Below are positions 12,729 to 26,311 of a DNA stretch of 64,000 bases, piece after piece. Each line of letters begins with the position of its first letter. Position 1 is the stretch's first letter. The DNA comes from an uncultured delta proteobacterium (GTDB taxonomy: Bacteria > Desulfobacterota > Syntrophia > Syntrophales > Smithellaceae), in contig CAWEQT010000001.1 of assembly GCA_963811325.1 (NCBI GenBank), positions 1,429,859-1,493,858 on the forward strand, written 5' to 3'. The notes beneath the pieces are model-generated. The model saw only the letters and a list, made by a program, of their open reading frames with translations. It was not told where the DNA came from and did not search any database. The translations under genes and the position numbers were made by a program.

Positions 12729-13109
12729 TTATTTCCTTGGTGCGGTAACTTTGCGTTTTACAGATTTATTGTTCGATATATCATTTGATGCTTCAATCAT
12801 ACGGGAAATTACCCTTTCTCTTACCTGATGTTGTTCCACTAATACTTCCCGCATTAAAGTGCAGGCCTGAATGATTTTGGGATTGGCTATTTTGTACAAT
12901 AATTGTTGCCCTTCACGCCGGGATACAATAACCCCTTTTGATTTCAGCACATTTATATGTTGCGATATATTCACTTTGCTTAAACCCGTTTTGTGCATAA
13001 TTTCATGGGTGGATGTTTCTTTGTCTTTAAGTAAATTAATAATTTCCAGACGTGTCTCATTGGCAAAAACTTTACAAATATCAGCCTGAAGCTTAAAAAT
13101 ATTTTCCAT
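12729..13109 (-). CDS. ArsR/SmtB-family transcriptional regulator
   Basis: The winged-HTH signature is FKVFANETRLEIINLL...THEIMHKTGLSKVNISQHINVLKSKGVIVSRREGQQLLYKI. The ATG at 13109 lies 5 nt after GGAG. Confidence 0.85.
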   Translation of the reverse strand: MENIFKLQADICKVFANETRLEIINLLKDKETSTHEIMHKTGLSKVNISQHINVLKSKGVIVSRREGQQLLYKIANPKIIQACTLMREVLVEQHQVRERVISRMIEASNDISNNKSVKRKVTAPRK

Positions 13110-13416
13110 GTTTACTCCATCAGTGGGCAAAGTATTGGCAGTCATAATAGAATTGCAATATTATCTTCCCTTTTATCTATAGTTTACAAGTTAAGATGTT
13201 TGTATTTTATATAATTTACATTATTATAAATGTCAACATAAAAATAATAAGAAATATATTTCCTGAATTATACTTTAGTTGATAGCCGTTTCTATGTAAT
13301 TTCCCCCTTAAAACAGTAAATTGTTATCCTCAATTGAATTAAGATGTTGCAAATAATGATCATTGGTTATGTTTCCCAAATTGTTTGTCTAAACATTTAA
13401 AAAACAATTATAACTC

Positions 13417-13445
13417 TTGACAAGTAATGAGCATATGCTTATAAT
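13417..13445 (+). promoter_or_regulatory. Consensus sigma70-type promoter (TTGACA-17-TATAAT) with an embedded palindrome AGCATATGCT
   Basis: TTGACA is at 13417-13422, followed by a 17-nt spacer and TATAAT at 13440-13445. This lies 25 nt upstream of the DUF134 gene ATG. The spacer holds the perfect 10-bp palindrome agcatatgct. Confidence 0.6.
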
Positions 13446-13470
13446 AACTTAAAAGGAGTAATTAAATCGA

Positions 13471-13815
13471 ATGCCACGACCTAAATGTCTTCGTAATATC
13501 TGTGGGATCCCTGACAAAAATTATTTCAAGCCAAGGGGTATACCCACAGTTGATCTGGAAGAAGTGGTTTTAACCCTTGATGAATTCGAAGCCGTTCGTC
13601 TGGCTGATTATGAACAATTGTATCAGGAGGAAGCGGCGACCAGTATGAGCATATCCCGCCAGACATTCGGCAGGATAATTGAAAAGGCGCACAAAAAAAT
13701 AGCTGACGTTTTGCTTAACGGCAAAGCATTAAAAATCGAAGGCGGAGAAGTTAATTTGGAAGAAATGAAGCCGCACTGCCGGGCAAAAAGGCACATGGCG
13801 GGAAAAAATAAATAA
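13471..13815 (+). CDS. DUF134/UPF0251-family putative DNA-binding protein
   Basis: MPRPKCLRNI...YFKPRGIP...LTLDEFEAVRLADYEQLYQEEAA..MSISRQTFGRIIEKAHKKIADVL matches the DUF134 pattern, with a sigma-70 region-4-like HTH. Confidence 0.8.
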   Translation: MPRPKCLRNICGIPDKNYFKPRGIPTVDLEEVVLTLDEFEAVRLADYEQLYQEEAATSMSISRQTFGRIIEKAHKKIADVLLNGKALKIEGGEVNLEEMKPHCRAKRHMAGKNK

Positions 13816-13834
13816 TATTTTAAAGGAGAAATTT

Positions 13835-14197
13835 ATGAAAATCGCATTACCGTCAAACCAAAATCAGATTGATGAACACTTTGGACACTGTGAATATTTC
13901 ACTGTATTCACCATTGATGATCAGAAAAAAATTCTGTCGGAGGAAAAGATTTCATCGCCAGCCGGATGTGGCTGCAAATCGAATATCGCCTCTACTCTTG
14001 CTCAGATGGGTGTAAAAATGATGTTAGCGGGAAATATGGGACAAGGCGCCGTAAACGTTCTGAACAATCAGGGCATCGATGTTCTGCGCGGATGTTCGGG
14101 CAATGTTAAAGATATAACCGTAAGCTGGCTCGCTGGTAAACTCAACGATTCCGGTATTTCCTGTAGTCAGCATGAACACGCTTGTCATGAGGACTAG
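13835..14197 (+). CDS. NifB/NifX-family (dinitrogenase Fe-Mo cofactor biosynthesis domain) protein
   Basis: MKIALPS....IDEHFGHCEYFTVFTID is the typical N-terminus of PF02579-type proteins. The 120-aa size fits the family. Confidence 0.75.
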   Translation: MKIALPSNQNQIDEHFGHCEYFTVFTIDDQKKILSEEKISSPAGCGCKSNIASTLAQMGVKMMLAGNMGQGAVNVLNNQGIDVLRGCSGNVKDITVSWLAGKLNDSGISCSQHEHACHED

Positions 14198-14269
14198 TAC
14201 CCGGACTTTAACTGTTTAATTGTGACTCTGTTCAGAGAACTTGCTACTCATCGTTGCAGGATATTTATA

Positions 14270-14899
14270 ATGTGTGGTGCAAAACATGATTTTGATAAAG
14301 ACGCTGCTTCCTGGGATGACAAACCCGGGCGGGTCAAGTTAGTTAAAGATATAGCGAATGCAATAACCAGAGAAATAAATTTGACCCCATCTATGGATGT
14401 TCTGGACTTCGGCTGTGGTACGGGTTTGTTAACCACGCAGTTACAGCCATTTGTTCGCTCCATCACAGGTGTAGACAGCTCTCGGGGAATGTTGGATGTT
14501 CTCAAACGTAAGATTAAAGATCAGAAGTTGAAAAATGTGCAGACTCGTTACCTGGATATTGAGAAAGACGGCATTTTGGAAGGCAGTTATAATATGATTG
14601 CAAGCAGCATGACTTTTCATCACATCAGGAACATCAGGTTTGTTCTGGATCAATTCTACAACATTTTGCTTTCCGCAGGTAATCTTTGCATTGCCGACCT
14701 GGATGTTGATGGCGGTCAGTTTCACGAAAACAATGATGGTGTTTTTCACTCCGGTTTTGACCGGGAAAGTCTGAGCCATGTTATCAAGGAAGCAGGATTT
14801 CAAGATATCAGATGTCAGACGGCAGCCAAAATAACGAAACCGGTTCAAGGTGAAAGAAACAGAGAATTTACAATATTTCTCATTACAGGTTGTAAATGA
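14270..14899 (+). CDS. Class I SAM-dependent methyltransferase
   Basis: Motif I reads VLDFGCGTGLLT, with post-I VDSS and motif II-like DMIASSMTFHH. ATG 14270 is preferred over the GTG 14222 track start. Confidence 0.75.
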   Translation: MCGAKHDFDKDAASWDDKPGRVKLVKDIANAITREINLTPSMDVLDFGCGTGLLTTQLQPFVRSITGVDSSRGMLDVLKRKIKDQKLKNVQTRYLDIEKDGILEGSYNMIASSMTFHHIRNIRFVLDQFYNILLSAGNLCIADLDVDGGQFHENNDGVFHSGFDRESLSHVIKEAGFQDIRCQTAAKITKPVQGERNREFTIFLITGCK

Positions 14900-14945
14900 T
14901 AGAAATATAAACTGTTATTTGCATTCTTGTTGGAGGACATTGGCT

Positions 14946-15437
14946 ATGAACATATGTGATATCATTTATTGGCCCATCGGAATCATCCACAGCGGACATA
15001 AAATCGCGAAAAAAACGCCCATTCAGCCCGTTTATGCAAAAGGTTGCAAAGGACATGTCGAACTGTGTCCCGAGTTTTCTGAAGGTCTGTGTGATCTGAA
15101 TGGTTTTTCACACATTTACTTGATTTATCATTTTCATAAAGAGAGAACCGTCAGTCTGCTTGTTAAGCCCTTTCTTCAAGATGAGGAACATGGAATATTC
15201 GCAACAAGGGCACCCTGCCGTCCCAACGCTATCGGTCTGAGTGTGGTGAAACTGACCGGTATTAAAGGAAATATTCTGTATCTGGATAACGTGGATATTC
15301 TTGATAGCACACCGCTTCTGGATATCAAGCCCTATACGGCCAAGTTCGACCTGCACAATATTAAGAAAAATGGCTGGCAGGACAAGGTGGATAAACAAAC
15401 AGCAACAAAAAGAGGAAAACGAGGGTATCGTTCATAA
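14946..15437 (+). CDS. TrmO/TsaA (YaeB)-family SAM-dependent methyltransferase
   Basis: GIIHSG...PIQP...GFSHIYLIYHFH...GIFATRAPCRPNAIGLSVVKL...LDSTPLLDIKPY are family hallmarks. ATG 14946 lies after GGAGGA. Confidence 0.8.
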   Translation: MNICDIIYWPIGIIHSGHKIAKKTPIQPVYAKGCKGHVELCPEFSEGLCDLNGFSHIYLIYHFHKERTVSLLVKPFLQDEEHGIFATRAPCRPNAIGLSVVKLTGIKGNILYLDNVDILDSTPLLDIKPYTAKFDLHNIKKNGWQDKVDKQTATKRGKRGYRS

Positions 15438-15560
15438 AAATGTCTTTGGATTGCACTCCATGTTTTTCCTTCAGTCAGGGACACGGTCAGAATATCTGCC
15501 TCATTGGATGCAGACTGGAAACTTTTGATGCACAATGTTTTGCAATGGAGAAAATAAAGT

Positions 15561-15818
15561 ATGCCGACCTACGAATATAAATGCAGCCGCTGCGGTCTAT
15601 ATTTTGAGAGACAACAAAGCATAAATGACGCGCCTGTCTCAATTTGTCCCGAATGTCAAGGGGAAGTTCGGCGGCAAATAAGCGGCGGAAGCGGTTTTAT
15701 CATGAAATCAGCAGGTGTCGGTCGACGCGATCAAATGAAGGGCTGTTCCCTCGAAGAAACGGGAAAAACATGCTGTGGCGCGGATAGAAAGTGTGGAGAA
15801 TCACATTGCGGAAATTGA
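15561..15818 (+). CDS. FmdB-family zinc-ribbon protein (CxxC_CxxC_SSSS)
   Basis: MPTYEYKCSRCGLYFERQQSINDAPVSICPECQG is the canonical N-terminal zinc ribbon. The tail is Cys-rich. Confidence 0.75.
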   Translation: MPTYEYKCSRCGLYFERQQSINDAPVSICPECQGEVRRQISGGSGFIMKSAGVGRRDQMKGCSLEETGKTCCGADRKCGESHCGN

Positions 15819-15839
15819 ACAGGAGGATTAAAATATTAA

Positions 15840-16730
15840 ATGGAAATGGAAAAAGATAAAAAGACCTGCGATACATGCAGTGATACCAGTTGTTCCGCTG
15901 CCAAACAACAACAGGGGGAAAGCACAGAAGACTATGCCGACCGACGTAAACTGGAGGCGACATTATGCCGCATCCAGAAAAAAATTGTAGTGCTCTCCGG
16001 TAAAGGAGGCGTCGGTAAAAGCACCGTTGCCATCAATCTGGCCTGTTCTCTAATGCTTTCCGGCCTGCGCGTGGGACTGCTGGATGTGGATATTCACGGT
16101 CCCAGTGTGCCGACCATGCTGGGCTTGGAAAACGAAACTATAACCGGCGGTCCAGACGAAATCTTTCCCGTTGAATTGGGAAATATGAAGGTTATGTCTT
16201 TGGGTTTTCTTTTGCAAAACCCCGATGATGCTATCATCTGGCGGGGACCGATGAAAATGGGTGTCATAAAGCAGTTTCTGACAGATGTACACTGGGGAGG
16301 CCTGGATTATCTCATTGTGGATGCCCCTCCCGGAACCGGAGATGAACCTCTTTCGTTATGCCAGTTGATTCAACCGTTGGATGGAGCGGTGATCGTTACC
16401 ACACCACAGAGGGTAGCCGCAGTTGATGTGCGCAAATCGATAAGCTTTTGCAAACGGGTTGATGTGCCTGTTTTAGGTGTTATTGAAAACATGAGCGGAT
16501 TTGTCTGCCCGAAATGCGGTGAAATCACACAAATTTTACCCGCAGGCGGTGGAAAGATAATTGCCAGGGATATGAATGTACCCTATCTTGGTGCTATTCC
16601 CATAGATCCGGCTATTGCTCAGTCCAGTGACGAGGGCCGCGCATTCATCCATCATTATGCATCAAGTCCGACGGCAAAAATTATGCAGGATATCATCAAT
16701 AGGATTATGGTCTTAAATAAAACAAATTAG
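15840..16730 (+). CDS. mrp: Mrp/NBP35/ApbC-family Fe-S cluster carrier ATPase
   Basis: Deviant Walker A VLSGKGGVGKST is present. The CPKC motif (FVCPKCGE) is characteristic of Mrp/NBP35. The N-terminal leader is Cys-rich (CDTCSDTSC). Confidence 0.85.
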   Translation: MEMEKDKKTCDTCSDTSCSAAKQQQGESTEDYADRRKLEATLCRIQKKIVVLSGKGGVGKSTVAINLACSLMLSGLRVGLLDVDIHGPSVPTMLGLENETITGGPDEIFPVELGNMKVMSLGFLLQNPDDAIIWRGPMKMGVIKQFLTDVHWGGLDYLIVDAPPGTGDEPLSLCQLIQPLDGAVIVTTPQRVAAVDVRKSISFCKRVDVPVLGVIENMSGFVCPKCGEITQILPAGGGKIIARDMNVPYLGAIPIDPAIAQSSDEGRAFIHHYASSPTAKIMQDIINRIMVLNKTN

Positions 16731-16837
16731 TCGGCGCGCCAACGGAACAACAATGGAAACTGATTGCGGACTTTTTGCAGACACGTTACAGGTTGGAGAA
16801 AACGTCTGCTACAACTAAAAAATAAAGAGGAATCATT

Positions 16838-17791
16838 GTGACTCAAACCCAGTTGAGAGCGGTTGATAGGGTTGAGGTGCTGACGTTGCAAGACAACTAC
16901 ATCGAAATGACTGCGATGGACGACAACGCAGTCATTTCACGAGCCATGCCTCTCAAGGCCGGAGAAATCCGTACCTCCGTTTTAGCGGAACATGGTTTTT
17001 CCGCCTTGGTCAAAACCACCATCATCAACAAAACCCATACACTGCTTTTTGATTTTGGTTTTTCCGAAGACGGAGCTGCACAAAACGCCAAAACCCTTGG
17101 TGTCGATATGACCGAAGTCGAAGCTGTGGCGCTTTCGCATGGACATAGCGACCACACAAGTGGCATGGCAAAGCTGGCTGTTTTAATTGGCAGGAAAAAC
17201 GTTCCCTTTGTTACGCATCCGTCTGTATTCAAGTCACCTCGTTATCTGAAATACGGCGAAGAATTCAAAATAAACTTCCCAAAATTTACGCGTGATATGG
17301 TTCAATCCGCAGGACTTACCGTTGTTGAAGCGGAAAACCCATACGCTCTACTGGACAATACCATTTTATTTCTGGGAGAAATTCCGCGTTCAACAGACTT
17401 TGAAAAAGGCTTTTCCATCGCCCATTGTCAAAGAGATGGCAAGGAAGTTTGGGATGCAATTGAAGACGATACGTCCATTGTTATGAATCTGAAAAATAAA
17501 GGCCTGATCATTCTTTCCGGCTGTGCCCACTCGGGCATTGTCAACACAGTATTACACGCAATAGAAATGACTGGTATCAATCAGATTCACGTTGTGATGG
17601 GCGGATTTCACTTGTCCGGTCCATTTTTCGAACCGATTATTGACCGCACTACGCAGGAGCTTCAGAAATTTCATCCAGTCTATATAATTCCAACACATTG
17701 CACAGGCCGCAAAGCAATCATGACTATGGAAAAACAAATGCCTGATCAGTTTATTTTGAATATGGCGGGAACAAAACTCACTTTTACATAA
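16838..17791 (+). CDS. MBL-fold metallo-hydrolase (COG1237-like)
   Basis: LSHGHSDHTSG (HxHxDH variant), GCAHSG and later IPTHCTG are present. The GTG start lies after AAAGAGGA. Confidence 0.75.
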   Translation: MTQTQLRAVDRVEVLTLQDNYIEMTAMDDNAVISRAMPLKAGEIRTSVLAEHGFSALVKTTIINKTHTLLFDFGFSEDGAAQNAKTLGVDMTEVEAVALSHGHSDHTSGMAKLAVLIGRKNVPFVTHPSVFKSPRYLKYGEEFKINFPKFTRDMVQSAGLTVVEAENPYALLDNTILFLGEIPRSTDFEKGFSIAHCQRDGKEVWDAIEDDTSIVMNLKNKGLIILSGCAHSGIVNTVLHAIEMTGINQIHVVMGGFHLSGPFFEPIIDRTTQELQKFHPVYIIPTHCTGRKAIMTMEKQMPDQFILNMAGTKLTFT

Positions 17792-17818
17792 AAGAAGTAC
17801 AATGACGAAGGAGATGAC

Positions 17819-18301
17819 ATGACAGAAAAGGCATTTCAGGATTATTACCCGGACTATTTCAGCCATTGTTACGGTTGCGGCCGACTCAATGAACAGGGCA
17901 TGCAGATCAAAAGCTACTGGGAAGGAGAGGAGACTGTCTGCATCCATGAACCTAAAGATTACCACTCTGCCGTTCCCGGGTATGTGTATGGCGGCCTCAT
18001 CGCCTCGCTGATTGATTGCCACTCCATGGGCACTGCTGCCGCGGCCAAGTACCGTGCCGAAAATCGGGAGATGGGCACTGAACCCGCCCTGCGTTTTATG
18101 ACAGCTTCTCTACAGGTGAATTATTTACGTCCAACGCCATTGGGCGGGCCATTGGAAATCCGCAGCACAGTCAAGGAAATTAAAGGACGTAAGGTTATTG
18201 TGGAATCACGACTTCTTGCCAGCGGGAAAATCTGCGCGACAGGCGAAGTTGTCGCTGTGCAGGTACCCGAACATATGACGCCGGCCAACACAAAAATATA
18301 A
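17819..18301 (+). CDS. PaaI/hotdog-fold thioesterase
   Basis: 160 aa. GYVYGGLIASLIDCHSMG is the typical PaaI-type catalytic region. An N-terminal CxxC-like HCYGCG is present. Confidence 0.7.
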   Translation: MTEKAFQDYYPDYFSHCYGCGRLNEQGMQIKSYWEGEETVCIHEPKDYHSAVPGYVYGGLIASLIDCHSMGTAAAAKYRAENREMGTEPALRFMTASLQVNYLRPTPLGGPLEIRSTVKEIKGRKVIVESRLLASGKICATGEVVAVQVPEHMTPANTKI

Positions 18302-18450
18302 CAGTGGGGCTGAATAAATATCTATTGTGTTTACTTAGATCAATGCAATCGAATTTACAGATTGTTAATTGAAGAAGAGATAAGGTACCACTTGCATGCA
18401 CGAACTATCAAAAAATTGTCCATTTTACTTTTAAACAGGAGAAAAATACT

Positions 18451-20151
18451 ATGACAATGAGAAAAAGAATCGTAATAATCGGCGGATCGGCGGCAGGCCC
18501 CAAAGCTGCAGCAAAGGCCAGACGAATCGATAATGATGCCGAAGTCATTATCTTGCAAAAAGACTCTGATCTTTCCATGGCGTCCTGCGGTTATCCCTAT
18601 TACATCGGCGGATATTTTGATGACCGCAATATGCTTTTGTGTACTCCCACCGGAGTTGTACGAACCCCGATGTTCTATCTAAACGCCAAGGATATCGAGG
18701 CTAAAGTGAACACTGAAGTAACGGTTATTGATCGCAAAAACCATTCAGTCTCGTTTCGTAACCTTACCACAGGAGAAACCGGCACACATACCTATGACAA
18801 ACTAGTTATGGCCACTGGTTCGTATCCGCAGATGCCTCTTGTGCCAGGTCTGGATCTGGATGGTATTACAACATTGCAATCCATGAAAGACGCCGATTTT
18901 ATGCGTAAAGTTCGGGACGAAAAGAAAATCAAGAAAGCCGTCATAGTCGGAGGTGGCTTGATAGGCATTGAAACCTGTGAAGCCCTGCAATTGGCCGGGA
19001 TTGAAATCACAGTTATTGAACTTCTGCCTCAACTGCTCACTTTTCTGGATTGGGAACTGGCGAAACTTGTGGAGAATCACGTACGCAGTAAAGGAGCAAA
19101 TGTAATCACCGATAACGGCATTGCCGAATTTCTGGGCGAAAACGGCAAACTGACGACGGTTAAACTGCAAAATGGTACGGAATTGCCCTGCGAATTGGCT
19201 GTTGTAGCTATTGGTGTTCGTCCTAACGTTAAACTGGCGAAAGAAGCGGGTCTTAAAATCGGCAGGTTGGGCGGCCTAAAAGTTAATAAATATATGCAGA
19301 CATCCGATCCGGACATCTACGCGGTGGGCGACTGTATTGAAACTGTCAATCGCATTACCGGCAAGAAGGTGCTCGCCCCTTATGGTGACTTAGCCAATCT
19401 TCAGGGACGCGTGGCAGGTGAAAATGCCGCTTCGGAAAATTGCGTTACATTCCCTGGAACAATTCAAACCGGCATATGTAAGGTTTTTGATTATGCAGCT
19501 GGCTCTACCGGACTATCCGAAAAGGCAGCGAGAAAATCCGGCCATTCAGATATTATTACCGTGATTAATGCCAGCCCGGATAAGCCCGGATATATGGATG
19601 CGAAACTGATAGTGACCAAACTTGTCGCTGATAAGAAAACAGGTAAAGTGCTCGGTGCGCAATGCATCGGTCCCGGTAATGTCGGGAAGCAAATTGCCCA
19701 GTGGGCCATGGCCATTCATGGGAAATTAACTGTGGAAGATCTAATCAATGCTGATCTACCTTACGCGCCTCCTTTTTCACTGCCTATCGATCACTTTATC
19801 GCCACAGCGCATATAATGCAAAACAAAATGAAAGGCAGGATGAAGGGCATTAGCTGCAAGGAGGTCAAAGAAAAATTATCATCCAAGGAAAAACCTTTTA
19901 TTATCGATGTGCGGGGATCCGATGAATTTGAGCAAATGCGACTCGGTATAGGTGAAACTCTCATTCCATTGGGAGCGCTGCGCAAACGGATCAAGGAACT
20001 GCCTGAAGACAAAAACAGGGAAATCATCTGCTACTGTAAGATTTCACTGCGCGGCTATGAGGCGGCATTGGTACTGGAAGGAAATGGTTGGAAGAATGTG
20101 AAAGTTATGGAAGGCGGCGTCATGGCCTGGCCATATCCGAGGGAAAAATAA
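18451..20151 (+). CDS. CoA-disulfide/persulfide reductase-type FAD-dependent pyridine nucleotide-disulfide oxidoreductase with C-terminal rhodanese domain (CoADR-RHD)
   Basis: The N-terminal dinucleotide fold is IVIIGGSAAGPKAA. The single redox Cys sits in SMASCGYPYY. A second Rossmann fold reads VIVGGGLIGIE. The C-terminal rhodanese has active-site Cys ICYCKISLRG. Confidence 0.85.
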   Translation: MTMRKRIVIIGGSAAGPKAAAKARRIDNDAEVIILQKDSDLSMASCGYPYYIGGYFDDRNMLLCTPTGVVRTPMFYLNAKDIEAKVNTEVTVIDRKNHSVSFRNLTTGETGTHTYDKLVMATGSYPQMPLVPGLDLDGITTLQSMKDADFMRKVRDEKKIKKAVIVGGGLIGIETCEALQLAGIEITVIELLPQLLTFLDWELAKLVENHVRSKGANVITDNGIAEFLGENGKLTTVKLQNGTELPCELAVVAIGVRPNVKLAKEAGLKIGRLGGLKVNKYMQTSDPDIYAVGDCIETVNRITGKKVLAPYGDLANLQGRVAGENAASENCVTFPGTIQTGICKVFDYAAGSTGLSEKAARKSGHSDIITVINASPDKPGYMDAKLIVTKLVADKKTGKVLGAQCIGPGNVGKQIAQWAMAIHGKLTVEDLINADLPYAPPFSLPIDHFIATAHIMQNKMKGRMKGISCKEVKEKLSSKEKPFIIDVRGSDEFEQMRLGIGETLIPLGALRKRIKELPEDKNREIICYCKISLRGYEAALVLEGNGWKNVKVMEGGVMAWPYPREK

Positions 20152-20293
20152 ACACTAAAAAGAAAGGAGGCATTGATGTATGGCTGAGGAAATCAAGGCC
20201 GGATGTGCCAGACCCACAGGCGGACCGGTCGGAGAAAAAATCGACGTCAAAAAAGAAACCAGTCAGCAAACATCGATCAAGGAGGTCAAAACA

Positions 20294-20902
20294 ATGGTTA
20301 CTGTCGGTAAAAAGGCACCGGATTTCACTGCTCCGGCATATCACAAGGGGAAATTTATCTCTGTTCAATTGTCAGAATTTCTTGGCAAATGGGTTGTTTT
20401 ATGTTTCTATCCCGGAGATTTTACATTCGTCTGAGCTACCGAAATCTCGGCGGTCGCCGAGAAATATCCCGAATTTAAAAAACTGGGCGTTGAAGTTTTA
20501 TCCATGAGTGTCGACAGCGTCTTTGTTCATAAAATGTGGAATGACCATGAATTGTCCAAGATGGTCAAAGGCGGGATACCATATCCCATGCTTTCTGACG
20601 GTGGCGGTAAAGTTGGAAGCATCTATGGAGTTTATCTGGAAGAAGCTGGCGTGGAAGCAAGAGGAAGATTTCTGATTGACCCCGACGGTATTATTCAGGG
20701 TTTTGAAGTGCTCACTCCGCCGGTCGGACGTAATGTCAGCGAAACTTTCCGGCAGCTACACGCCTTTCAGCATGTGCGCAACAGCAAAGGAACCGAGGCC
20801 ACACCATCCGGCTGGAAACCGGGCAAACCCACGCTAAAACCAGGTCCCGATTTGGTGGGCAAGGTTTGGGAAGTCTGGAAAACTTCCATGGCTTTTGATT
20901 AA
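20294..20902 (+). CDS. Selenocysteine-containing peroxiredoxin (AhpC/Prx1 family; UGA 20432-20434 read as Sec at the peroxidatic position)
   Basis: Track ORFs 20180..20434 and 20504..20902 are in the same frame. The joined sequence reads [17 protein letters not shown]... versus the universal FYPxDFTFVCPTE. Downstream Prx homology continues ([30 protein letters not shown]). ATG 20294 lies 8 nt after AAGGAGG. A SECIS-like hairpin follows the UGA. Confidence 0.8.
20446..20461 (+). promoter_or_regulatory. Bacterial SECIS-like hairpin (CUCGGC-GGUC-GCCGAG)
   Basis: A 6-bp GC-rich stem with a GGUC loop starts exactly 11 nt after the in-frame UGA. As I recall, the E. coli fdhF minimal SECIS has the same 11-nt spacing and the same GGUC loop sequence. 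Confidence 0.65.
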
Positions 20903-20963
20903 AAATATGAAACAATCGGCGGGCGTTATAAAACTATGCTTCCGTCGACTGCATTAAAACATT

Positions 20964-21644
20964 TTAGTCGCCTTGAGCAAGCTCTTCTATTGCTTTTCTG
21001 TTAAGAATAGTGATCACACGACCATCCACGGCAAGGATTCCGTCGTTGCTCATTTTTCTAAAGGAACGGGAAAGAGCCTCGGGAGTAGCACCAAGAATTT
21101 TGGAAAGCTCTCTATGAGAGATAGTCAATTCCAGTTTATTTTTCTTTTCACCCGCATCATTGCGAAGAGCATGGAGAAGAAAAGCTGAAAGCCGTTCGGG
21201 TACTTCCTTCAATGCCAGAGATTCTATAAGCGTCATGAAATCCTTGAGACGCTGTGAAAGTATCTGAATGATATTGAGAAGCAACGCCGGTTCTTTTTTG
21301 GCAATGGCTTCCATAAACTCTCCGGGGATGATCAATACCGCGCTTTCTTCAATGGCCATGGCACTGGCGGGAAAGGAATCCGTAGCAAAGGCTGTGCACA
21401 AGCCGAAAGGATCACCCTGACCTAAAAGAGATAAAGTCTGCTCCCTGCCTTCGGCAGAACTCTTGGAGAGTTTTAGCTGGCCGGAAATCACGACATAAAA
21501 TGACCGGATCGGATCTGCCTCGCCGATTACTAATTCGCCAGGCTTGAATTTTTTATATATCGCCCGTGATGCCAACAGCTTTAAATTTTCTGCTGATATG
21601 CCTCTAAACAGGGAGACATCTTGTATTTGTTTAATAATGTCCAT
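20964..21644 (-). CDS. Crp/Fnr-family transcriptional regulator
   Basis: The cNMP-binding-type N-terminal domain reads LFRGIS...FKPGELVIGEAD...FYVVISGQLKL. The C-terminal HTH is SHRELSKILGATPEALSRSFRKM, with the E--SR recognition motif. There is no N-terminal Cys cluster. Confidence 0.9.
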   Translation of the reverse strand: MDIIKQIQDVSLFRGISAENLKLLASRAIYKKFKPGELVIGEADPIRSFYVVISGQLKLSKSSAEGREQTLSLLGQGDPFGLCTAFATDSFPASAMAIEESAVLIIPGEFMEAIAKKEPALLLNIIQILSQRLKDFMTLIESLALKEVPERLSAFLLHALRNDAGEKKNKLELTISHRELSKILGATPEALSRSFRKMSNDGILAVDGRVITILNRKAIEELAQGD

Positions 21645-21663
21645 GGTAAATTTTTCTCTTAAG

Positions 21664-21681
21664 CATTGATCTAGATCAATG
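21664..21681. promoter_or_regulatory. Perfect 18-bp palindrome containing an FNR-type box TTGAT-CTAG-ATCAA
   Basis: The sequence is cattgatctagatcaatg. It lies in the divergent crp/fnr-trxA intergenic region. Its centre (21672.5) is ~40 nt upstream of a predicted TSS downstream of a TATAGT -10 element at 21700-21705. Confidence 0.7.
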
Positions 21682-21779
21682 ACATCTTGAAAAATAAAAT
21701 ATAGTTATAGAATTAAAAGAGGAAAACAATTAACACATAGAGAAAAGAAATAAAACAATTTTATCAGGAGGAAAGAAAA

Positions 21780-22115
21780 ATGAGTAAGCAGGAATTAGTA
21801 AAACATGCAGATGATAGTAATTTTGAGACAATGGTTTTAAAGGCCGATAAACCCGTTCTGGTAGATTTCTGGGCTCCGTGGTGTGGACCTTGCCGTGCTA
21901 TTGGTCCAATATTGGAAGAAGTGGCAGACGTTTATGGTGATCGGGTGAATATTGTGAAGGTTAATGTAGATGATAATCCTCAGATATCAGGGAGATACGG
22001 TGTTAGAAGTATTCCCACATTACTGATTATCAAGGATGGAAAGGTAACAGATACCACGGTTGGTTTGGCATCGAAGGACCAATTGACCGATCTTATCAAT
22101 CGGAATCTTAATTAG
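21780..22115 (+). CDS. trxA: Thioredoxin
   Basis: 111 aa with the motif DFWAPWCGPCRAIGP. AGGAGG lies upstream. Confidence 0.9.
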   Translation: MSKQELVKHADDSNFETMVLKADKPVLVDFWAPWCGPCRAIGPILEEVADVYGDRVNIVKVNVDDNPQISGRYGVRSIPTLLIIKDGKVTDTTVGLASKDQLTDLINRNLN

Positions 22116-22135
22116 TTGGAATAAGGTGAATAAAA

Positions 22136-22297
22136 ATGAGTGACATTCTTGTTTTTGTTATTATAATAGCGGTATGGTTTTTCTTGCAGGTATGGCTTTT
22201 ACTCAGGATGGGAGTTTCTACCTGAGTAAAACCTGCCTGTCCGGTCGAGGATAGGAAGAAAAGGAAAGATTTGCCAGAATCTAAAAGTGATCGGTAA
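22136..22297 (+). CDS. Candidate small membrane selenoprotein (53 codons if UGA 22223-22225 is Sec; otherwise a 29-aa membrane peptide ending at 22225)
   Basis: AAGGTGA lies 6 nt before the ATG. The translation is MSDILVFVIIIAVWFFLQVWLLLRMGVST-U-VKPACPVEDRKKRKDLPESKSDR. The frame stays open for 23 codons after the UGA. GGUC lies at +21..24 from the UGA, as in the Prx gene, within an imperfect bulged hairpin. Confidence 0.35.
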
Positions 22298-22344
22298 ACT
22301 TTTAACAAGTTTTAATTGTCTCATTAACCAGAAAGGAGATGTAT

Positions 22345-22578
22345 ATGAAAAAAAATATGGGAACCATCGACAGAACTGTAAGAGTATTGTTGGCCATTGT
22401 TGTTGGTATTCTTTATCTGACTGGTAACATTTCCGGCATGGCGGCGATTATTCTGGGCATACTGGCGGTCGTATTCATTTTGACAAGTGCAATCGGCTTC
22501 TGCCCTCTATATTTCCCCTTTAAAATTTCCACTATCGGTAAAAGCGACGGCATAGAAATAAAAAAATTAAATAATTAA
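22345..22578 (+). CDS. DUF2892 (YgaP-like) small inner-membrane protein
   Basis: MGTIDRTVRVLLAIVVG...LTSAIGFCPLY is the DUF2892 signature. ATG 22345 lies 6 nt after AAAGGAG. Confidence 0.8.
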   Translation: MKKNMGTIDRTVRVLLAIVVGILYLTGNISGMAAIILGILAVVFILTSAIGFCPLYFPFKISTIGKSDGIEIKKLNN

Positions 22579-22609
22579 AATTCAACCATAAAGACTTGAG
22601 AGGGATATA

Positions 22610-22714
22610 ATGGATTCGCGCCAATATGGCAGGTGTTATAAAAAAGCATATGGTCGGCGACTGCGTCATGCCCTGCGAGGATATATTTGCGAAAGTTTTC
22701 ACGAGATAATATGA
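22610..22714 (+). CDS. Possible 34-aa basic peptide (speculative)
   Basis: GAGAGGGA lies 4-5 nt upstream of the ATG. The translation is MDSRQYGRCYKKAYGRRLRHALRGYICESFHEII. It falls below the track length cut-off and matches no family I recognise. Confidence 0.2.
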   Translation: MDSRQYGRCYKKAYGRRLRHALRGYICESFHEII

Positions 22715-22882
22715 TATATTATTAAAAAATATCACTCTTGTGAAATTTTTCTCTCTGAAAAATGTTTTATGGACTTTATAAGAAATTATTATTGAAGTAA
22801 AAGTTCATAATCTCCGATAAAGGTTATCTATGCGTTTAACCTTACTTTGTAAATGGACAATCAAAACATAGAGGTCGAAGGC

Positions 22883-23092
22883 ATGAAAGTTATTGTTGAC
22901 CGTGATTTATGCGAAGGTATCGGAAATTGCGTGGCCATTGCCCCCGGCGTTTTTGCACTGGATAAACAAAACAAAGCAGTTGCAACACATATTGAATCCA
23001 TCAGCCAGGAAAAAATCAGAGAAGCGGCTGAAAGCTGCCCACTGGATGCTATTATTCTTCAGGACGATCAGGGCGAGCAGATTTATCCTTGA
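22883..23092 (+). CDS. Small single-cluster ferredoxin
   Basis: MKVIVDRDLCEGIGNCVAIAPGVFALD...ESCPLDAI has the CxxGxC...C(P) layout of [3Fe-4S]/[4Fe-4S] mono-cluster ferredoxins. ATG 22883 lies after AGAGGTCGAAGG. Confidence 0.8.
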   Translation: MKVIVDRDLCEGIGNCVAIAPGVFALDKQNKAVATHIESISQEKIREAAESCPLDAIILQDDQGEQIYP

Positions 23093-23112
23093 ATTCAAAT
23101 CTTAATCCCTAT

Positions 23113-23128
23113 ATTGACAAATGTCAAT
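23113..23128. promoter_or_regulatory. Perfect palindrome ATTGAC-AAAT-GTCAAT overlapping a -35 element upstream of nifS
   Basis: It has TTGAC-N4-GTCAA symmetry. TTGACA (23114-23119) plus 16 nt plus TATATT (23136-23141) forms a plausible sigma70 promoter. Confidence 0.4.
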
Positions 23129-23229
23129 CCTCACTTATATTATAATAACTATAGAAATAACCTGGATTATTAAAATTTAAATAAAAAGGCGTTTCCCCGC
23201 AATGTCAAATCGAAAGAGAGGTGTTAAAG

Positions 23230-24420
23230 ATGACAAAAGTTTATCTGGACCATTCTGCCGCGGCTCCCTTATTGCCGGAAGTCAGAGGAGCCATGATGCC
23301 GTATCTGGGTATGGATTTTGGCAATCCTTTATCTTTACATGACTGGGGCGATGCTCCCAGAGATGCACTGGAGGAGGCACGGGGGCAAGTGGCGGAGTTA
23401 ATCGGAGCGGCAAATCCTGAGGAAATAATTTTCACCGCCAGCGGAACGGAAAGCAATAACTTTGCCATCAAGGGATTGGCTCTGGCCCAACAAAATAAAG
23501 GAAAGCACATCGTTATCTCAGCGATCGAACATTTCTCAGTAATGAATTCGGCGAGGTTTATGGAAAAGCTGGGATATGAAATCAGCGAGGTACCGGTAGA
23601 CAAAAAAGGTCTGGTAGACCCGGAAAACGTCAGAAAAGCTATTCGTCCTGATACCGTCCTGGTTTCGATTATGCATGCCAACGGCGAGGTTGGAACGATC
23701 CAACCGCTAGCTGAAATATCCGGAATTACCAAAGAAAAGAAAGTGGTATTGCATACCGACGCGGTGGCCACATGCGGTACAATTCCAGTCAATGTAAAAG
23801 AATTGGGCGTCGACGCATTGAGTTTGGCGGGGAATCCGTTTTACGGACCGAAAGGCAGTGCGGCGTTGTGGATCAGGCGGGGCATACGGATACTGCCGCT
23901 TTTGGACGGCGGAATTCAGGAAGGAGGACGCAGAGCAGGAACAGAGGACATTGCGGCGATCATTGGAATGGGTAAAGCCGCCCAAATAGCGGCACGTGAG
24001 GTGGCGGCAAGAGGGTTGAAATTGACACAGATCAGAGATAGTTTAATTAATGGTCTGCCGGCAAAAATTCTGCATGTGGTAGTGACCGGAGATCTGGTAA
24101 AAAGATTGCCCGGACATGCCAGTTTCTGTATTGAATTTATTGAAGGCGAGGCGATGCTGATGCTGTTAAACAGCCAGGGAGTGGCGGTTTCCAGCGGCTC
24201 TTCCTGCACATCAAGAGCACTGAAAGCATCTCATGTCCTGCTGGCAATGGGTTACAACCATGAAATAGCGCAAGGTTCGCTGTTATTTACAATGGGAATT
24301 CAAAATAAGCCAGAGGACATCGACCACGTTCTAAATGTGATGCCGCCTATCGTGGAAAGGCTCAGAGAGATGTCACCCGTTTATTCAAAATTTATTAAAG
24401 CCAATAAAGGAGGTCAGTGA
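23230..24420 (+). CDS. nifS: Cysteine desulfurase, NifS type
   Basis: [18 protein letters not shown], the PLP-Lys region and the active-site loop SSGSSCTS are present. ATG 23230 lies 8 nt after AGAGAGG. Confidence 0.9.
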
Positions 24421-24421
24421 G

Positions 24422-24907
24422 ATGCCGGTATATAGCGAAAAAGTGATGGATCATTTTATGCATCCGCGCAACGTGGGTGAGATCGAAAATGCCGATGGCA
24501 TCGGAGAAGTCGGCAACCCGGTCTGCGGAGATATGATGACTTTTTACATCAAGGTCAAAGACAATCGTCTGGAAGATGTCAAATATAAGACTTTCGGCTG
24601 CGGCGCTGCTATTGCCGTTTCCAGTATGGTGAGTGAAATGGCCAAGGGCGCGACTATAGAAGAAGCTCAAAAAATCACTCCTGAATCAGTCGCCAAGATG
24701 CTGGAAGGCCTGCCTAAACAGAAATTCCATTGCTCGAATCTGGGCGCCCAGGCTTTGAATAAGGCTATTGACGATTATTTAGTTAAAACCGGAAAACTCA
24801 AGGCAGAGGATAGTAAATGCTGTCCGTTCTGTGATCATGAAGATAGTGAAAATGATCCAGTCTGTAAACAGGGATGTCAGGTCAATCTTACGGAAAAAGT
24901 TTCCTGA
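24422..24907 (+). CDS. nifU: NifU/IscU-type Fe-S cluster scaffold with Cys-rich C-terminal extension
   Basis: HFMHPRNVG...NPVCGDMMTFYIKV...FGCGAAIA...HCSNL carry the three scaffold Cys. The tail is CCPFCDH...CKQGC. Confidence 0.85.
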   Translation: MPVYSEKVMDHFMHPRNVGEIENADGIGEVGNPVCGDMMTFYIKVKDNRLEDVKYKTFGCGAAIAVSSMVSEMAKGATIEEAQKITPESVAKMLEGLPKQKFHCSNLGAQALNKAIDDYLVKTGKLKAEDSKCCPFCDHEDSENDPVCKQGCQVNLTEKVS

Positions 24908-24963
24908 TATGAAATGTAATCACCGGAGACAGTTTTATTGTACAGAATGAAGGAGGAATCACT

Positions 24964-25446
24964 ATGGAGGAAAAAGAAAAATTTACTTTGGTATTATTTA
25001 GCGGGGACTTGGATAAAGCCCTGGCAGCCTTTATTCTGGCTACCACAGCCGCCAGCATGGGTATGGAAGTAACCATGTTTTTTACCTTCTGGGGATTGAA
25101 TGTAATTAAACGTAATGAGGGTCCGATAAAAAGCAAGGGACTCATGCGTAAGATGCTGAATATCTTGAACCGGGGCGGGTACAGCCGTTTGAAGTTATCT
25201 AAATTTAACATGTTGGGAATGGGCACATTGATGATGAAAAAGCTGATGAAGGAATCCAAATATCCTTCCATTGATGAATTTATTGAGATGGCGAAAGAGA
25301 TGGGTATTAAAATGGTGCCTTGTTCAACTTCTTGTGGAATCCTGGGCCTGCCTGATGACGCGTTTACCGATGGAGTGATGAGTCAGGCCGGAGCAGCCTT
25401 TTTCCTGGCACAAGCCAGAGAGTCCAGGACAACTCTGTTTATATAA
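24964..25446 (+). CDS. DsrE/DsrF-like family sulfur-relay protein (COG2210 type)
   Basis: FTLVLFSGDLDKALAAFILATTAASMGMEVTMFFTFWGL and the C-terminal VPCSTSCG are typical of this family. Confidence 0.75.
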   Translation: MEEKEKFTLVLFSGDLDKALAAFILATTAASMGMEVTMFFTFWGLNVIKRNEGPIKSKGLMRKMLNILNRGGYSRLKLSKFNMLGMGTLMMKKLMKESKYPSIDEFIEMAKEMGIKMVPCSTSCGILGLPDDAFTDGVMSQAGAAFFLAQARESRTTLFI

Positions 25447-25459
25447 TAAGGAGTAATAT

Positions 25460-25693
25460 ATGCAAGCTGATGAATCATTGGATTGTTTTGGATTGATGTG
25501 TCCGATGCCGATCATAAAAACGGCCCAGGTTTTCAAGAAGATGAAGGTAGGTCAGGTACTGGAAATAGTTGCGACCGATAAGGGCATCAAACAGGATATG
25601 CCGGCATGGTGCAAAACCACTGGAAATGAGTGTCTGGCCATCGAAGATAAAGGCGAAGAAATTAAGGTTTACGTCAAAAAAACAAAAGAATAG
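25460..25693 (+). CDS. tusA: TusA/SirA-family sulfurtransferase
   Basis: LDCFGLMCPMPIIKT is the conserved CPxP active site. The protein is 77 aa. Confidence 0.85.
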   Translation: MQADESLDCFGLMCPMPIIKTAQVFKKMKVGQVLEIVATDKGIKQDMPAWCKTTGNECLAIEDKGEEIKVYVKKTKE

Positions 25694-25873: not shown

Positions 25874-25916
25874 AAAAAAAAAGCACTCCAGTATGATTTC
25901 TCATAAACGGAGTGCT
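25874..25916 (-). terminator. Rho-independent terminator of the cold-shock gene
   Basis: On the minus strand the stem AGCACUCC...GGAGUGCU is followed by U9. It lies 24 nt after the csp stop codon. Confidence 0.7.
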
Positions 25917-25939
25917 TAAATTTTCAGTTTTCAACAAAA

Positions 25940-26140
25940 CTAGACGGGTTTGACGTTTTCTGCTTCCTGGCCTTTTTTGCCCTGGACAACATCAAAACTA
26001 ACAAGCTGGCCCTCATTTAGCGTCTTGAAGCCGCTGGCCTGAATTGCACTGAAATGCACAAAAACATCGCCGCCGTCTTCTTTTTCGATGAAGCCGAAAC
26101 CCTTGCGTTCGTTGAACCACTTTACTTTACCTTGTGACAT
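25940..26140 (-). CDS. cspA: Cold-shock protein (CspA family)
   Basis: [33 protein letters not shown] carries the RNP1 and RNP2 motifs. Confidence 0.95.
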
Positions 26141-26311
26141 AATGCTTATCCTCCTTTCTTAGAATTTCCAAAAGTCGAACTAGCACGATGACAGAACTAA
26201 AAAAAACCACCAAGACCCTAAAGTACCTGGTGGCTAACCTATGTGCTTCAAAATGTCTAAATTCAACTCTTTCCTTCGCATCTTTATTTCTAAATAACCG
26301 AAGTTGAAAAC

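Follow-up and report, generated by a model that had tools for sequence, protein, structure and literature searches.

What does a run of sulfur, thiol and iron–sulfur (Fe–S) genes along one strand amount to: one regulon, or several units that lie side by side? The question is raised by positions 13,417 to 25,693 of a 64,000-nucleotide (nt) stretch of DNA from an uncultured member of the Smithellaceae (the whole stretch is referred to hereafter as the window). A first-pass annotation had read this block as a single regulon for Fe–S repair and the management of reactive sulfur and oxygen species. The general theme that it proposed (thiol, persulfide, peroxide and Fe–S chemistry) fits the gene content, and, as it described, 18 of the 19 genes between 13471 and 25693 lie on the plus strand, the sole minus-strand gene encoding a Crp/Fnr-family regulator (20964–21644). 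On comparison with related loci, we consider it probable that the block is not one operon but three separately inherited units standing side by side in a Smithella genome, such that a persulfide/peroxide defence regulon adjoins housekeeping Fe–S assembly. The units are delimited as follows:

Unit A, 13417–18301, plus strand: DUF134, NifX-like, methyltransferase, TrmO, zinc ribbon, Mrp, MBL and PaaI genes, with their own conserved promoter
Unit B, 18330–22578: the Crp/Fnr-family regulator; a CoADR–rhodanese fusion (CoADR-RHD) and a selenocysteine (Sec) peroxiredoxin; trxA, a 53-residue selenoprotein and DUF2892, with boxed promoters
Unit C, 22883–25693, plus strand: ferredoxin and NifS–NifU–DsrE2–TusA

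Evidence for separate inheritance and separate promoters

Synteny was read from three samples. The first, anchored on CoADR-RHD, holds at least 80 loci from a profile scan (one genome per GTDB species) plus four from metagenome look-ups, 84 in all, against which 20 window proteins were used as tblastn queries. The second, anchored on NifS, holds at least 80 metagenome loci, 46 with enough sequence downstream of NifS and 39 with room upstream. The third comprises seven loci (L165–L171) anchored on the Crp/Fnr gene.

The NifS cassette adjoins genes of unit A or B in none of these 171 loci (80 NifS-, 84 CoADR- and 7 Crp-anchored). It is missing from all seven Crp-anchored loci; TrxA, DUF2892 and the small Sec gene are found at none of the 80 NifS loci, where the other matches are paralog-level (24–29% identity; Crp at seven loci, CoADR at two, Prx at one); and Crp, ferredoxin, DsrE2, TusA and DUF2892 all fail to appear by tblastn within 10 kb of CoADR in the 84 loci, which gave a single weak match to TrxA and another to NifS. 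Downstream of NifS, in contrast, NifU and TusA are constant (each 46/46) and DsrE2 frequent (27/46), while ferredoxin precedes NifS in 17 of the 39 loci with room. At L085, the nearest relative (93% NifS identity), the genes upstream of NifS code instead for a phosphoesterase and a cupredoxin-like protein, accompanied by an unannotated open reading frame (ORF), which argues that ferredoxin/NifS–NifU–(DsrE2)–TusA is a cassette of its own.

Units A and B, to judge from gene order, travel together in Smithellaceae. Of the seven Crp-anchored loci, five preserve the divergent arrangement of crp and trxA–Sec(–DUF2892), an RND efflux operon standing between crp and trxA in L170 and L171. Genes of unit A are found no more than 10 kb from crp in five loci and at a distance of 11.6 kb in another (in HGW-Deltaproteobacteria-12, L007 and L166 overlap on one contig, placing crp 11.6 kb from CoADR). 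In L168 the series DUF134–NifX–methyltransferase–MBL–CoADR converges on crp, as in the window; in L171, crp–DUF134–NifX–TrmO–Mrp–zinc ribbon–MBL–4HBT–DUF302–CoADR run along a single strand. L165 and L170 are comparable, L167 partial. Conservation of the block outside this strain is thus borne out for the first run of genes, the Crp gene and trxA–Sec–DUF2892 (L168, L170 and L171 hold nearly the same genes in nearly the same order), but not for the ferredoxin/NifS–NifU–DsrE2–TusA half.

This linkage bears on the view that the block has no functional meaning, its ordinary housekeeping operons being chance neighbors in one metagenome-assembled genome (MAG). The DUF2892–ferredoxin junction with its 304-nt spacer is indeed unique to this genome, and relatives vary in which genes the units contain; A and B are nonetheless linked in five to six of the seven relatives, the association of CoADR-RHD with genes of the orange-protein (ORP) type extends over several phyla, and operator positions are conserved. 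We hold this view to be very improbable, and for units A and B it is already contradicted.

The "very short spacers" of the first-pass annotation describe about half of the junctions. With starts corrected by comparison with relatives (TrmO, 14946; ferredoxin, 22883; NifS, 23230), the spacers in gene order measure 19, 24, 46, 123, 21, 107, 27, 149, 28, 61 (convergent), 135 (divergent), 20, 41, 304, 137, 1, 56 and 13 nt; those of 123, 107, 149, 135, 304 and 137 nt do not fit the description. Several of the spacers of at least 100 nt hold promoter or operator elements, listed here together with the promoter upstream of unit A:

13417–13445, plus strand: sigma-70 promoter of unit A, TTGACA-17-TATAAT (12/12 consensus match), with the palindrome AGCATATGCT in its spacer
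18330–18343, unstranded: FNR-type box TTTACTTAGATCAA, one mismatch to TTGAY-N4-RTCAA, 121 nt before the CoADR-RHD start codon
21666–21679, unstranded: perfect FNR-type box TTGATCTAGATCAA in the divergent crp/trxA promoter region
23114–23141, plus strand: nifS promoter, TTGACA-16-TATATT, with an overlapping palindrome TTGACAAATGTCAA that is not conserved

The elements before CoADR-RHD and between crp and trxA are kept in relatives, whereas the strong promoter match before nifS is found in this window only. The promoter pattern of unit A, CTTGACA...(G)CATATGC...YTATAAT, also stands upstream of DUF134 in L001, L004 and L165, and it contains no FNR box. Conservation of a perfect sigma-70 promoter and its CATATG palindrome in four loci argues that unit A is separately controlled; the palindrome is probably an operator, and the repressor acting there is perhaps the DUF134 protein itself. 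The DUF134 promoter (CTTGACA...GCATATGC...YTATAAT) is conserved nearly base for base while the neighboring non-coding DNA is not (L001, ~5340–5385; L004, ~9775–9820, minus strand; L165, ~4480–4520). RGCATATGCY was rejected as an operator common to the other units, there being one perfect copy in the window and no single-mismatch copy at a promoter. Likewise rejected as a third regulon site was the nifS palindrome (at 23114, over the −35 element): none of the 76 NifS loci scanned has it, nor do L085 and L086, whose NifS proteins are 93% identical to that of the window, and L085 carries TTTACAAATCCAT in its stead.

These observations bear on the proposal of all 19 genes forming one regulon or super-operon for Fe–S repair and reactive sulfur/oxygen management, in which NifS-derived persulfide would feed TusA, DsrE and rhodanese. 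A thiol, sulfur and Fe–S theme common to all genes, the co-direction of 18 of them, the position of both perfect FNR-like palindromes of the 64-kb window inside the block (one in the nifS promoter), and the adjacency of five or six units of the same theme, which we estimate without computation to be unlikely by chance, all speak for it. Set against this, the NifS cassette lies beside the other genes in 0 of 171 related loci; the nifS palindrome is missing from a 93%-identical relative and covers the core promoter rather than lying near −40 as at the trxA and CoADR promoters; the conserved unit A promoter is free of boxes; and several spacers reach 100 nt or more. We judge a single regulon unlikely. 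What stands of the proposal are the FNR-type boxes at conserved positions before crp/trxA and before CoADR-RHD–PrxU; unit A with its own box-free promoter, and the independent unit C with its unconserved nifS palindrome, do not belong to it. Thematic coherence along one strand, in short, is no proof of an operon, the Fe–S assembly half here being independent.

Scans of the non-coding DNA added little to this division. Terminator predictions (13 versus 13.7 expected) and promoter consensus counts were at chance level, such that only two near-perfect promoters were used from the promoter scan, and an Rfam scan of 12–27 kb gave no SECIS (selenocysteine insertion sequence) or riboswitch family and only a sub-threshold match to a cspA 5′-untranslated region. 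The DUF2892–ferredoxin spacer (22579–22882) that forms the B/C junction is the longest in the block (304 nt) and AT-rich, with no Rfam match and no conserved ORF; the equivalent position holds the RND efflux operon in L168, L170 and L171, and the spacer may be a rearrangement scar.

A proposed Crp/Fnr-type regulon for persulfide and peroxide defence

Labels assigned by profile search against Pfam and NCBIfam recovered every gene call of the first-pass annotation, including both selenocysteine genes: DUF134, Nitro_FeMo-Co (NifX-like), S-adenosylmethionine (SAM) methyltransferase, TrmO_N, FmdB zinc ribbon, Mrp/ParA, MBL, 4HBT/PaaI, CoADR with rhodanese, AhpC-TSA, Crp/Fnr, thioredoxin, a YgaP-like transmembrane protein (DUF2892), Fer4_15, NifS, NifU, DrsE_2 and TusA. 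Those of unit B are:

18451–20151, plus strand: CoADR–rhodanese fusion, predicted NADH-dependent persulfide reductase of Npsr/CoAPR type (Pyr_redox_2, Pyr_redox_dim, Rhodanese)
20180–20902, plus strand: selenocysteine peroxiredoxin PrxU (NF040737, 418 bits versus a cut-off of 270), with in-frame UGA at 20432–20434 and SECIS-like hairpin at 20445–20462
20964–21644, minus strand: Crp/Fnr-family regulator (cNMP_binding and HTH_Crp_2), with E--SR recognition helix (PEALSR) and a single cysteine, C83
21780–22115, plus strand: thioredoxin TrxA (TIGR01068, 131 bits versus a cut-off of 97)
22136–22297, plus strand: candidate membrane-anchored selenoprotein of 53 residues, with UGA at 22223–22225, SECIS-like hairpin at 22236–22255 and motif WLLPR[LM]G[VI]ST-U-xxxACP
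22339–22578, plus strand: two-helix membrane protein, DUF2892/YgaP-like (PF11127, 72 bits)

The regulator combines a cNMP-type barrel, an E--SR helix-turn-helix and a TTGAT-N4-ATCAA element near its own gene, the features of the FNR-box-binding branch of the Crp/Fnr family, and its nearest PDB relatives are only generic. C83, its sole cysteine, is invariant in 10 orthologs. The N-terminal Cys cluster and central Cys that ligate the Fe–S cluster in FNR proper are lacking, and with only one Cys the protein is not an Fe–S FNR.

Boxes were sought as TTGAY-N4-RTCAA, for which 0.69 perfect matches per 64 kb are expected; the window contains two, both inside the block. A perfect box lies ~30 nt upstream of the crp start codon in 7/7 Crp-anchored relatives, and in the two where trxA is displaced from crp (L170 and L171; it is divergent from crp in L165–L169) a perfect box is still found upstream of trxA. 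At the place equivalent to 18330, after PaaI and before DUF302, SLAC1 or CoADR, nine Smithellaceae loci carry perfect boxes (L003, L005, L008, L009, L011, L165, L168, L170 and L171), usually the sole perfect box in 20 kb. More widely, a box stands within 260 nt upstream of CoADR in 15 of 80 loci as against ~3.8 expected, two of them Desulfovibrionaceae. The analysis thereby defines a testable regulon by its regulator, its box consensus and the positions of three promoters.

CoADR-RHD contains the flavoprotein core (Pyr_redox_2, 207 bits) and dimerization domain (Pyr_redox_dim, 66 bits) of its class, scores 367 bits against TIGR03385 over residues 6–449, and ends in a rhodanese domain (PF00581, residues 470–560). 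The N-terminal redox cysteine (Cys46) and the rhodanese active-site cysteine (Cys529) are both invariant in a 16-sequence alignment. Its best PDB matches are 6pfz (3e-134), 3icr, 3nta and 8a56, among which are characterized persulfide reductases, namely the Npsr of A. fulgidus, the Npsr of S. loihica and the CoAPR of E. faecalis (6pfz, 3nta, 8a56); it is from homology to these three that the window protein is predicted to bind coenzyme A (CoA) and to reduce persulfide or polysulfide with NADH. In E. faecalis, CoAPR clears CoA persulfide, a compound toxic to enzymes that depend on CoA, and sulfide stress raises the level of thioesterases (PMC9405070), which offers a rationale for the PaaI neighbor.

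In Smithellaceae (L003, L005–L011) the gene order is (TrmO...zinc ribbon...NifU_N–)Mrp–NifX–MBL–PaaI–(SLAC1)–CoADR–PrxU at 70–90% identity. When all ORFs up to 6 kb from CoADR-RHD in 80 loci were clustered without bias, MinD/Mrp/CbiA-Fer4 ATPases ranked first (26 loci), followed by MBL (20, all of the family found in the window), NifX-like (18), DUF134 (13), PaaI and radical SAM proteins (11 each), TrmO-like and NifU_N (8 each), sigma-54 activators (7), and DUF5320, 1-Cys Prx, Fur and DUF89 (6 each). At least one ORP-type neighbor is present in 45/80 loci and at least three in 22/80, under labels that span several phyla (Bacteroidales, Chromatiaceae, Geobacter, Chloroflexia, Bdellovibrionota, Desulfovibrionales). 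A persulfide reductase beside ORP-type genes at this frequency is a lead on the function of ORP clusters, open since 2011.

The CoADR–rhodanese clade (60–85% identity) occurs in MAGs labeled Spirochaetota, Bacteroidales, Chromatiaceae, Chloroflexia, Kiritimatiellae and even Thermoplasmatota archaea (L005–L084), a spread that suggests frequent horizontal transfer or some mis-binning; one MAG holds two copies (L014, L015). Relatives also carry a Fer4_11 Fe–S protein and Ni_hydr_CYTB cytochrome b pair beside CoADR-RHD or trxA–DUF2892 (L001, 6796–8897; L003, 11758–13570; L166, 7109–8954), a pair that the window does not have.

Time and again the gene after CoADR-RHD encodes a protein of peroxiredoxin fold, but of types that are not orthologous to one another (PrxU, 1-Cys Prx or Redoxin), and this recurrence of non-orthologous types argues for a functional, defensive pairing. 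It counts likewise against a role in energy metabolism, whereby CoADR-RHD would be a cytoplasmic NADH:polysulfide reductase in sulfur respiration or an electron sink, supplied by ORP- and Psr-like partners, with Prx and Trx incidental. Npsr was first proposed to support sulfur respiration (PMC7969121), and the Fer4_11–cytochrome b pair adjoins CoADR-RHD in relatives; but those membrane subunits are lacking in the window, it is the FNR-box unit that repeatedly couples CoADR-RHD with a peroxiredoxin, and the A. fulgidus study favors a protective role (PMC7969121). A respiratory function is, in our estimate, highly unlikely.

Recoding of the PrxU UGA is supported at equivalog level by the profile match and by sequence context: Sec occupies the peroxidatic position (FTFV-U-ATE), and the hairpin starts 10 nt after the UGA with a 7-bp stem and a GGUC loop, in agreement with the bacterial SECIS model summarized in a recent review (PMC13188914), which lists the PrxU family as experimentally verified. 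Both FTFV-U-ATE and EATPSGW, where Thr replaces the resolving Cys, are kept in eight relatives, and a ninth, truncated, keeps the Sec motif. Retention of Sec and loss of the resolving Cys make this a 1-Sec peroxiredoxin in need of an external thiol; TrxA, of the same predicted regulon, would be the simplest reductant, a direct route through CoADR-RHD or CoA being possible.

The "candidate small Sec membrane protein" of the first-pass annotation is borne out by a conserved TGA (22223–22225) and hairpin. The ORF stands behind a good ribosome-binding site, its product has a hydrophobic helix at the N terminus, and the hairpin shares the geometry of that in PrxU (UGA, 10 nt, 7-bp stem, GGUC loop). 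Seven orthologs all lie directly downstream of trxA, and in all of them the TGA, the motif, the hairpin and the downstream coding sequence are kept, one stem pair covarying; DUF2892 follows trxA–Sec in L165, L166, L168 and L170. In L165–L170 the orthologs stand, all on the minus strand, at:

L165, 3083–3244, minus strand
L166, 9345–9506, minus strand
L167, 9346–9507, minus strand
L168, 9346–9507, minus strand
L169, 9292–9471, minus strand
L170, 3036–3194, minus strand

Gene callers shorten this ORF to 29 residues (L169) or 47 residues (L170), or miss it. Four orthologs, with U replaced by C, gave no Pfam or NCBIfam match even at E ≤ 10; a word-based homolog search returned nothing, no Cys-form homolog was found, and conservation was shown from the DNA of neighboring loci rather than by protein search. 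No family stood out for the G[VI]ST-U-xxxAC motif among the 119 selenoprotein families of a 2026 review (PMC13188914), whose table was scanned by eye and not exhaustively. We regard a new selenoprotein family as credible, the gene being a selenoprotein candidate without a Pfam or NCBIfam model.

Taken together, the following mechanism is proposed, in which gene identities, catalytic residues, Sec recoding signals, synteny and conserved operator positions are shown, and the substrates, the electron route to PrxU and every role in unit A are predicted. Unit A would be read from its own strong promoter under the CATATG operator. Unit B would constitute a small regulon of the Crp/Fnr-family protein, recognizing TTGAT-N4-ATCAA: box 1 would serve the divergent crp and trxA promoters, and box 2, ~120 nt before CoADR-RHD, the persulfide reductase and PrxU. 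The products of unit B would provide a cytoplasmic defence against oxidized sulfur and peroxide. Here CoADR–rhodanese would take sulfane sulfur onto its rhodanese Cys and turn CoA persulfide or polysulfide into H2S with NADH, keeping the CoA pool usable in a syntroph that depends on CoA thioesters; PrxU would remove peroxides and be recycled by TrxA or CoA-SH; and TrxA would also serve the juxtamembrane U-x4-C selenoprotein and DUF2892. Unit C would supply housekeeping Fe–S assembly through a minimal NifS–NifU pair and ferredoxin, with a DsrE2–TusA sulfur relay. Smithella lives on CoA-thioester metabolism, to which the rationale drawn from E. faecalis would extend, and it and its relatives are key syntrophs of anaerobic digesters and oil reservoirs, habitats that are sulfidic and occasionally exposed to oxygen; to our knowledge, protection of thiol and CoA pools in such syntrophs is essentially unstudied.

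Several points weigh against this three-unit reading. We infer both the pairing of regulator and boxes and its inducing signal, the pairing from adjacency and the E--SR motif; the regulator shows no known sensing cofactor site, and the box before CoADR-RHD in the window is itself imperfect (a TTTAC half-site). The transcription units are predictions that draw solely on spacers, promoter matches and conserved boxes, and clustering of the A, B and C themes in this genome could reflect shared regulation invisible to sequence analysis. The NifS sample consists mostly of relatives at 70–75% identity, with just two close ones (93%). Finally, the Psr-like Fer4_11 and cytochrome b proteins, or SLAC1/TauE, in the corresponding unit of relatives would suit respiration or anion export equally well.

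A more ambitious version seems doubtful. It would have the single-Cys regulator run an undescribed anaerobe defence regulon, with CoADR-RHD and PrxU forming a peroxidase/persulfidase relay driven by NADH (the selenenic acid being recycled by the rhodanese Cys or by bound CoA in the manner of AhpF–AhpC), TrxA feeding a new U-x4-C selenoprotein family with DUF2892, and the ORP system handling sulfide or polysulfide.

Gene content of units A and C

The genes of unit A are:

13471–13815, plus strand: DUF134 (UPF0251) predicted DNA-binding protein (PF02001, 91 bits)
13835–14197, plus strand: Nitro_FeMo-Co protein, NifX-like/orange-protein type (PF02579, 79 bits), matching positions 265–365 of MrpORP NF041136 (the C-terminal domain)
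14222–14899, plus strand: SAM-dependent methyltransferase (Methyltransf_25/23/11), weakly TehB-like (PF03848, 25 bits)
14946–15437, plus strand: TrmO/TsaA-like protein (TIGR00104, 119 bits versus a cut-off of 93); the ORF opens at 14850, and the product is 163 residues long from the likely start
15561–15818, plus strand: FmdB-family zinc-ribbon protein (PF09723, 58 bits; TIGR02605, 62 bits)
15840–16730, plus strand: Mrp/ApbC-type Fe–S carrier ATPase (PF10609, 339 bits; NF041136, 379 bits) with Walker A GKGGVGKS and a CPKC motif
16838–17791, plus strand: MBL-fold hydrolase (Lactamase_B, 29 bits; PDB 2p4z, 2e-20, and 3h3e, 2e-19; TM1679-like)
17819–18301, plus strand: PaaI/4HBT hot-dog thioesterase (PF03061; PDB 2prx, 6e-56)

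DUF134 orthologs (67–87% identity) head this gene set in L001, L004, L165, L167, L168, L170 and L171. Mrp corresponds to one half of MrpORP and the NifX-like gene to the other, and the Mrp score of 379 bits falls below the NF041136 cut-off of 450 because the C-terminal (ORP) domain is missing. By its predicted domains, unit A is a reduced relative of the ORP-type clusters of anaerobes, with a split MrpORP; every function in it, those of the ORP-like unit, the MBL hydrolase, the TrmO-like protein and the methyltransferase included, is putative. TrmO-like orthologs in L170 and L171 are likewise 163 residues long. The MBL hydrolase, which we take to be of the COG1237 type, matched only 2p4z and TM1679 and no persulfide dioxygenase of ETHE1/CstB type by sequence search; its family stands within 6 kb of CoADR-RHD in 20/80 loci. 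PaaI orthologs (69–76% identity) directly precede the CoADR unit in Smithellaceae. If the entry 2prx stems from structural genomics of Shewanella loihica PV-4, in which Npsr was first characterized, the pairing of thioesterase and Npsr may reach Shewanella. In the window and L168 the methyltransferase gene belongs to the DUF134 unit, whereas its orthologs in L165 and L170 come after DUF2892. Anion exporters of SLAC1/TehA or TauE type are found in or near the CoADR unit of relatives (L003, 9028–9978; L168, 11429–11797; L170, 14486–14854), and a TehA/TehB-like pairing of these with the weakly TehB-like methyltransferase hints at sulfite, selenite or tellurite handling.

The genes of unit C are:

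22883–23092, plus strand: small single-cluster ferredoxin (Fer4_15, 51 bits); the ORF opens at 22853, and the start is taken from alignment with relatives
23230–24420, plus strand: cysteine desulfurase NifS (TIGR03402, 469 bits, below the cut-off of 530.75; Aminotran_5, 227 bits); the ORF opens at 23221
24422–24907, plus strand: NifU/IscU-type scaffold (TIGR03419, 191.7 bits versus a cut-off of 187.9) with a Cys-rich tail
24964–25446, plus strand: DsrE2B-like sulfur carrier (PF13686, 164 bits; PDB 3pnx, 1.5e-22, and 2qs7, 1.6e-20) with the motif VPCSTSC
25460–25693, plus strand: TusA-family sulfur carrier (PF01206, 86 bits) with a CPMP (MCPMP) motif

NifS and NifU, separated by 1 nt, have the makeup of a minimal NifS–NifU pair, the NifU ligand cysteines lying at NPVCGD, FGCGA and HCS; past its IscU-like domain NifU ends in a Cys-rich tail (CCPFC...C..C), which L085 has too. 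The relay proteins hold the TusA CPxP cysteine and a DsrE2-type fold with C-terminal cysteine, the DsrE2 NCBIfam equivalog scoring only 80.6 bits versus a cut-off of 210. An exact-sequence look-up of the ferredoxin returned no record, probably since its annotated start differs.

Two selenoprotein genes within the block, together with these carriers, invite the idea of a chalcogen (selenium, tellurium, sulfite) handling island that would provide an organism rich in selenoproteins with selenium or detoxify the element for it. Its proposed parts are the TehB-like methyltransferase, TehA/SLAC1 or TauE exporters (in relatives), CoADR-RHD as a reductase of seleno-persulfides, NifS as a selenocysteine lyase and the TusA/YedF- and DsrE-like carriers. 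The methyltransferase match to TehB is weak, though clearer for the L168 ortholog, relatives include SLAC1 or TauE genes in the CoADR unit behind the FNR box, and TusA scores 44.5 bits against YedF and 49 against TusA. Yet the block has no selD, selA, selB or yedE, the selenium-specific models all fall below their cut-offs, the structurally solved CoADR-RHD homologs are sulfur enzymes, and the window carries neither SLAC1 nor TauE; such an island is improbable.

The genes upstream of the block (FadL, FAD/CCG oxidoreductase, ArsR) and downstream of it (CspA, phosphodiesterase) are unrelated to it, so the borders drawn by the first-pass annotation are correct. The ArsR gene (12729–13145) was rejected as a block regulator, not being kept beside the cluster (two weak matches in 84 loci). 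Convergent on tusA lies a cold-shock gene (25940–26140), which with its leader is spanned by the sub-threshold Rfam match to the cspA thermoregulator (25878–26272, minus strand; 46.9 bits versus a gathering score of 78, E = 1.8e-9); a hairpin at ~25882–25925, identified by eye, looks like a terminator common to tusA and this gene.

Comparison with known systems

All protein families in the block are already known. Limited literature searches found no description of the FNR-type regulon, the linkage of persulfide reductase and ORP cluster, the nifSU–dsrE–tusA cassette or the small selenoprotein.

Unit A is closest to the ORP complex and MrpORP of Desulfovibrio, whose cluster gene types are described (PMC6345978, PMC3897727). 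Both systems combine an Mrp/NBP35 ATPase with a Nitro_FeMo-Co (Di-Nase) domain, and relatives of the window add Orp3/4-like CbiA-Fer4 ATPases, DUF89, DUF5320, radical SAM proteins and a sigma-54 activator. In the window, however, Mrp and Di-Nase are separate genes rather than the fusion that defines MrpORP; there are no Orp3/Orp4-type CbiA ATPases (with two [4Fe–4S] inserts) and no sigma-54 activator, such genes being present in L003, L080 and Desulfobulbus/Desulfovibrio loci; and the promoter is of sigma-70, not sigma-54, type, with DUF134 at the head of the unit and CoADR-RHD after it.

The cst and cst-like operons of Firmicutes (E. faecalis coaP, encoding CoAPR, with RhdA and RhdB, regulated by CstR) share with unit B a CoADR–rhodanese core and a dedicated transcription factor. 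Thioesterases are co-induced in E. faecalis (PMC9405070) and a PaaI thioesterase stands in the window, while relative L001 has a CsoR/CstR-family gene inside the cluster. They differ in that the window regulator is of the Crp/Fnr family, with no CstR (no Trns_repr_metal match in the block); in that no SQR-specific match is present in the block (for the CoADR gene, among the best 25 of 51 NCBIfam families) and the MBL protein has no ETHE1/CstB-type match; and in the addition of Sec-peroxiredoxin, TrxA, small selenoprotein and DUF2892, in a strictly anaerobic host.

Unit C resembles the minimal NifS–NifU pair of anaerobes in its NifU_clost equivalog and NifS-like desulfurase, and the TusA–DsrE2/DsrE3 relays of sulfur oxidizers (PMC11094781, PMC4175335) in its TusA CPxP motif and DsrE2B-like fold. 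The window differs from both in joining the relay genes with nifSU and ferredoxin as one cassette, found in anaerobes that do not oxidize sulfur.

Npsr of Shewanella loihica and Archaeoglobus fulgidus has the identical domain fusion and both catalytic cysteines of CoADR-RHD (3e-134 versus 6pfz), whereas the FNR box, Prx partner and ORP-type neighbors of the window gene were not found described for Npsr in a limited literature search. The analogy with AhpF–AhpC pairs is a purely functional one: in both cases a disulfide oxidoreductase gene lies directly upstream of a peroxiredoxin gene, but CoADR-RHD lacks the N-terminal thioredoxin-fold domains of AhpF, such that its rhodanese domain and bound CoA would carry the electrons. 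The window PrxU, for its part, shares with PrxU of Eubacterium acidaminophilum the NCBIfam equivalog match and Sec at the peroxidatic position, and differs in its pairing with CoADR-RHD behind an FNR-type box and in an N-terminal extension of 38 residues.

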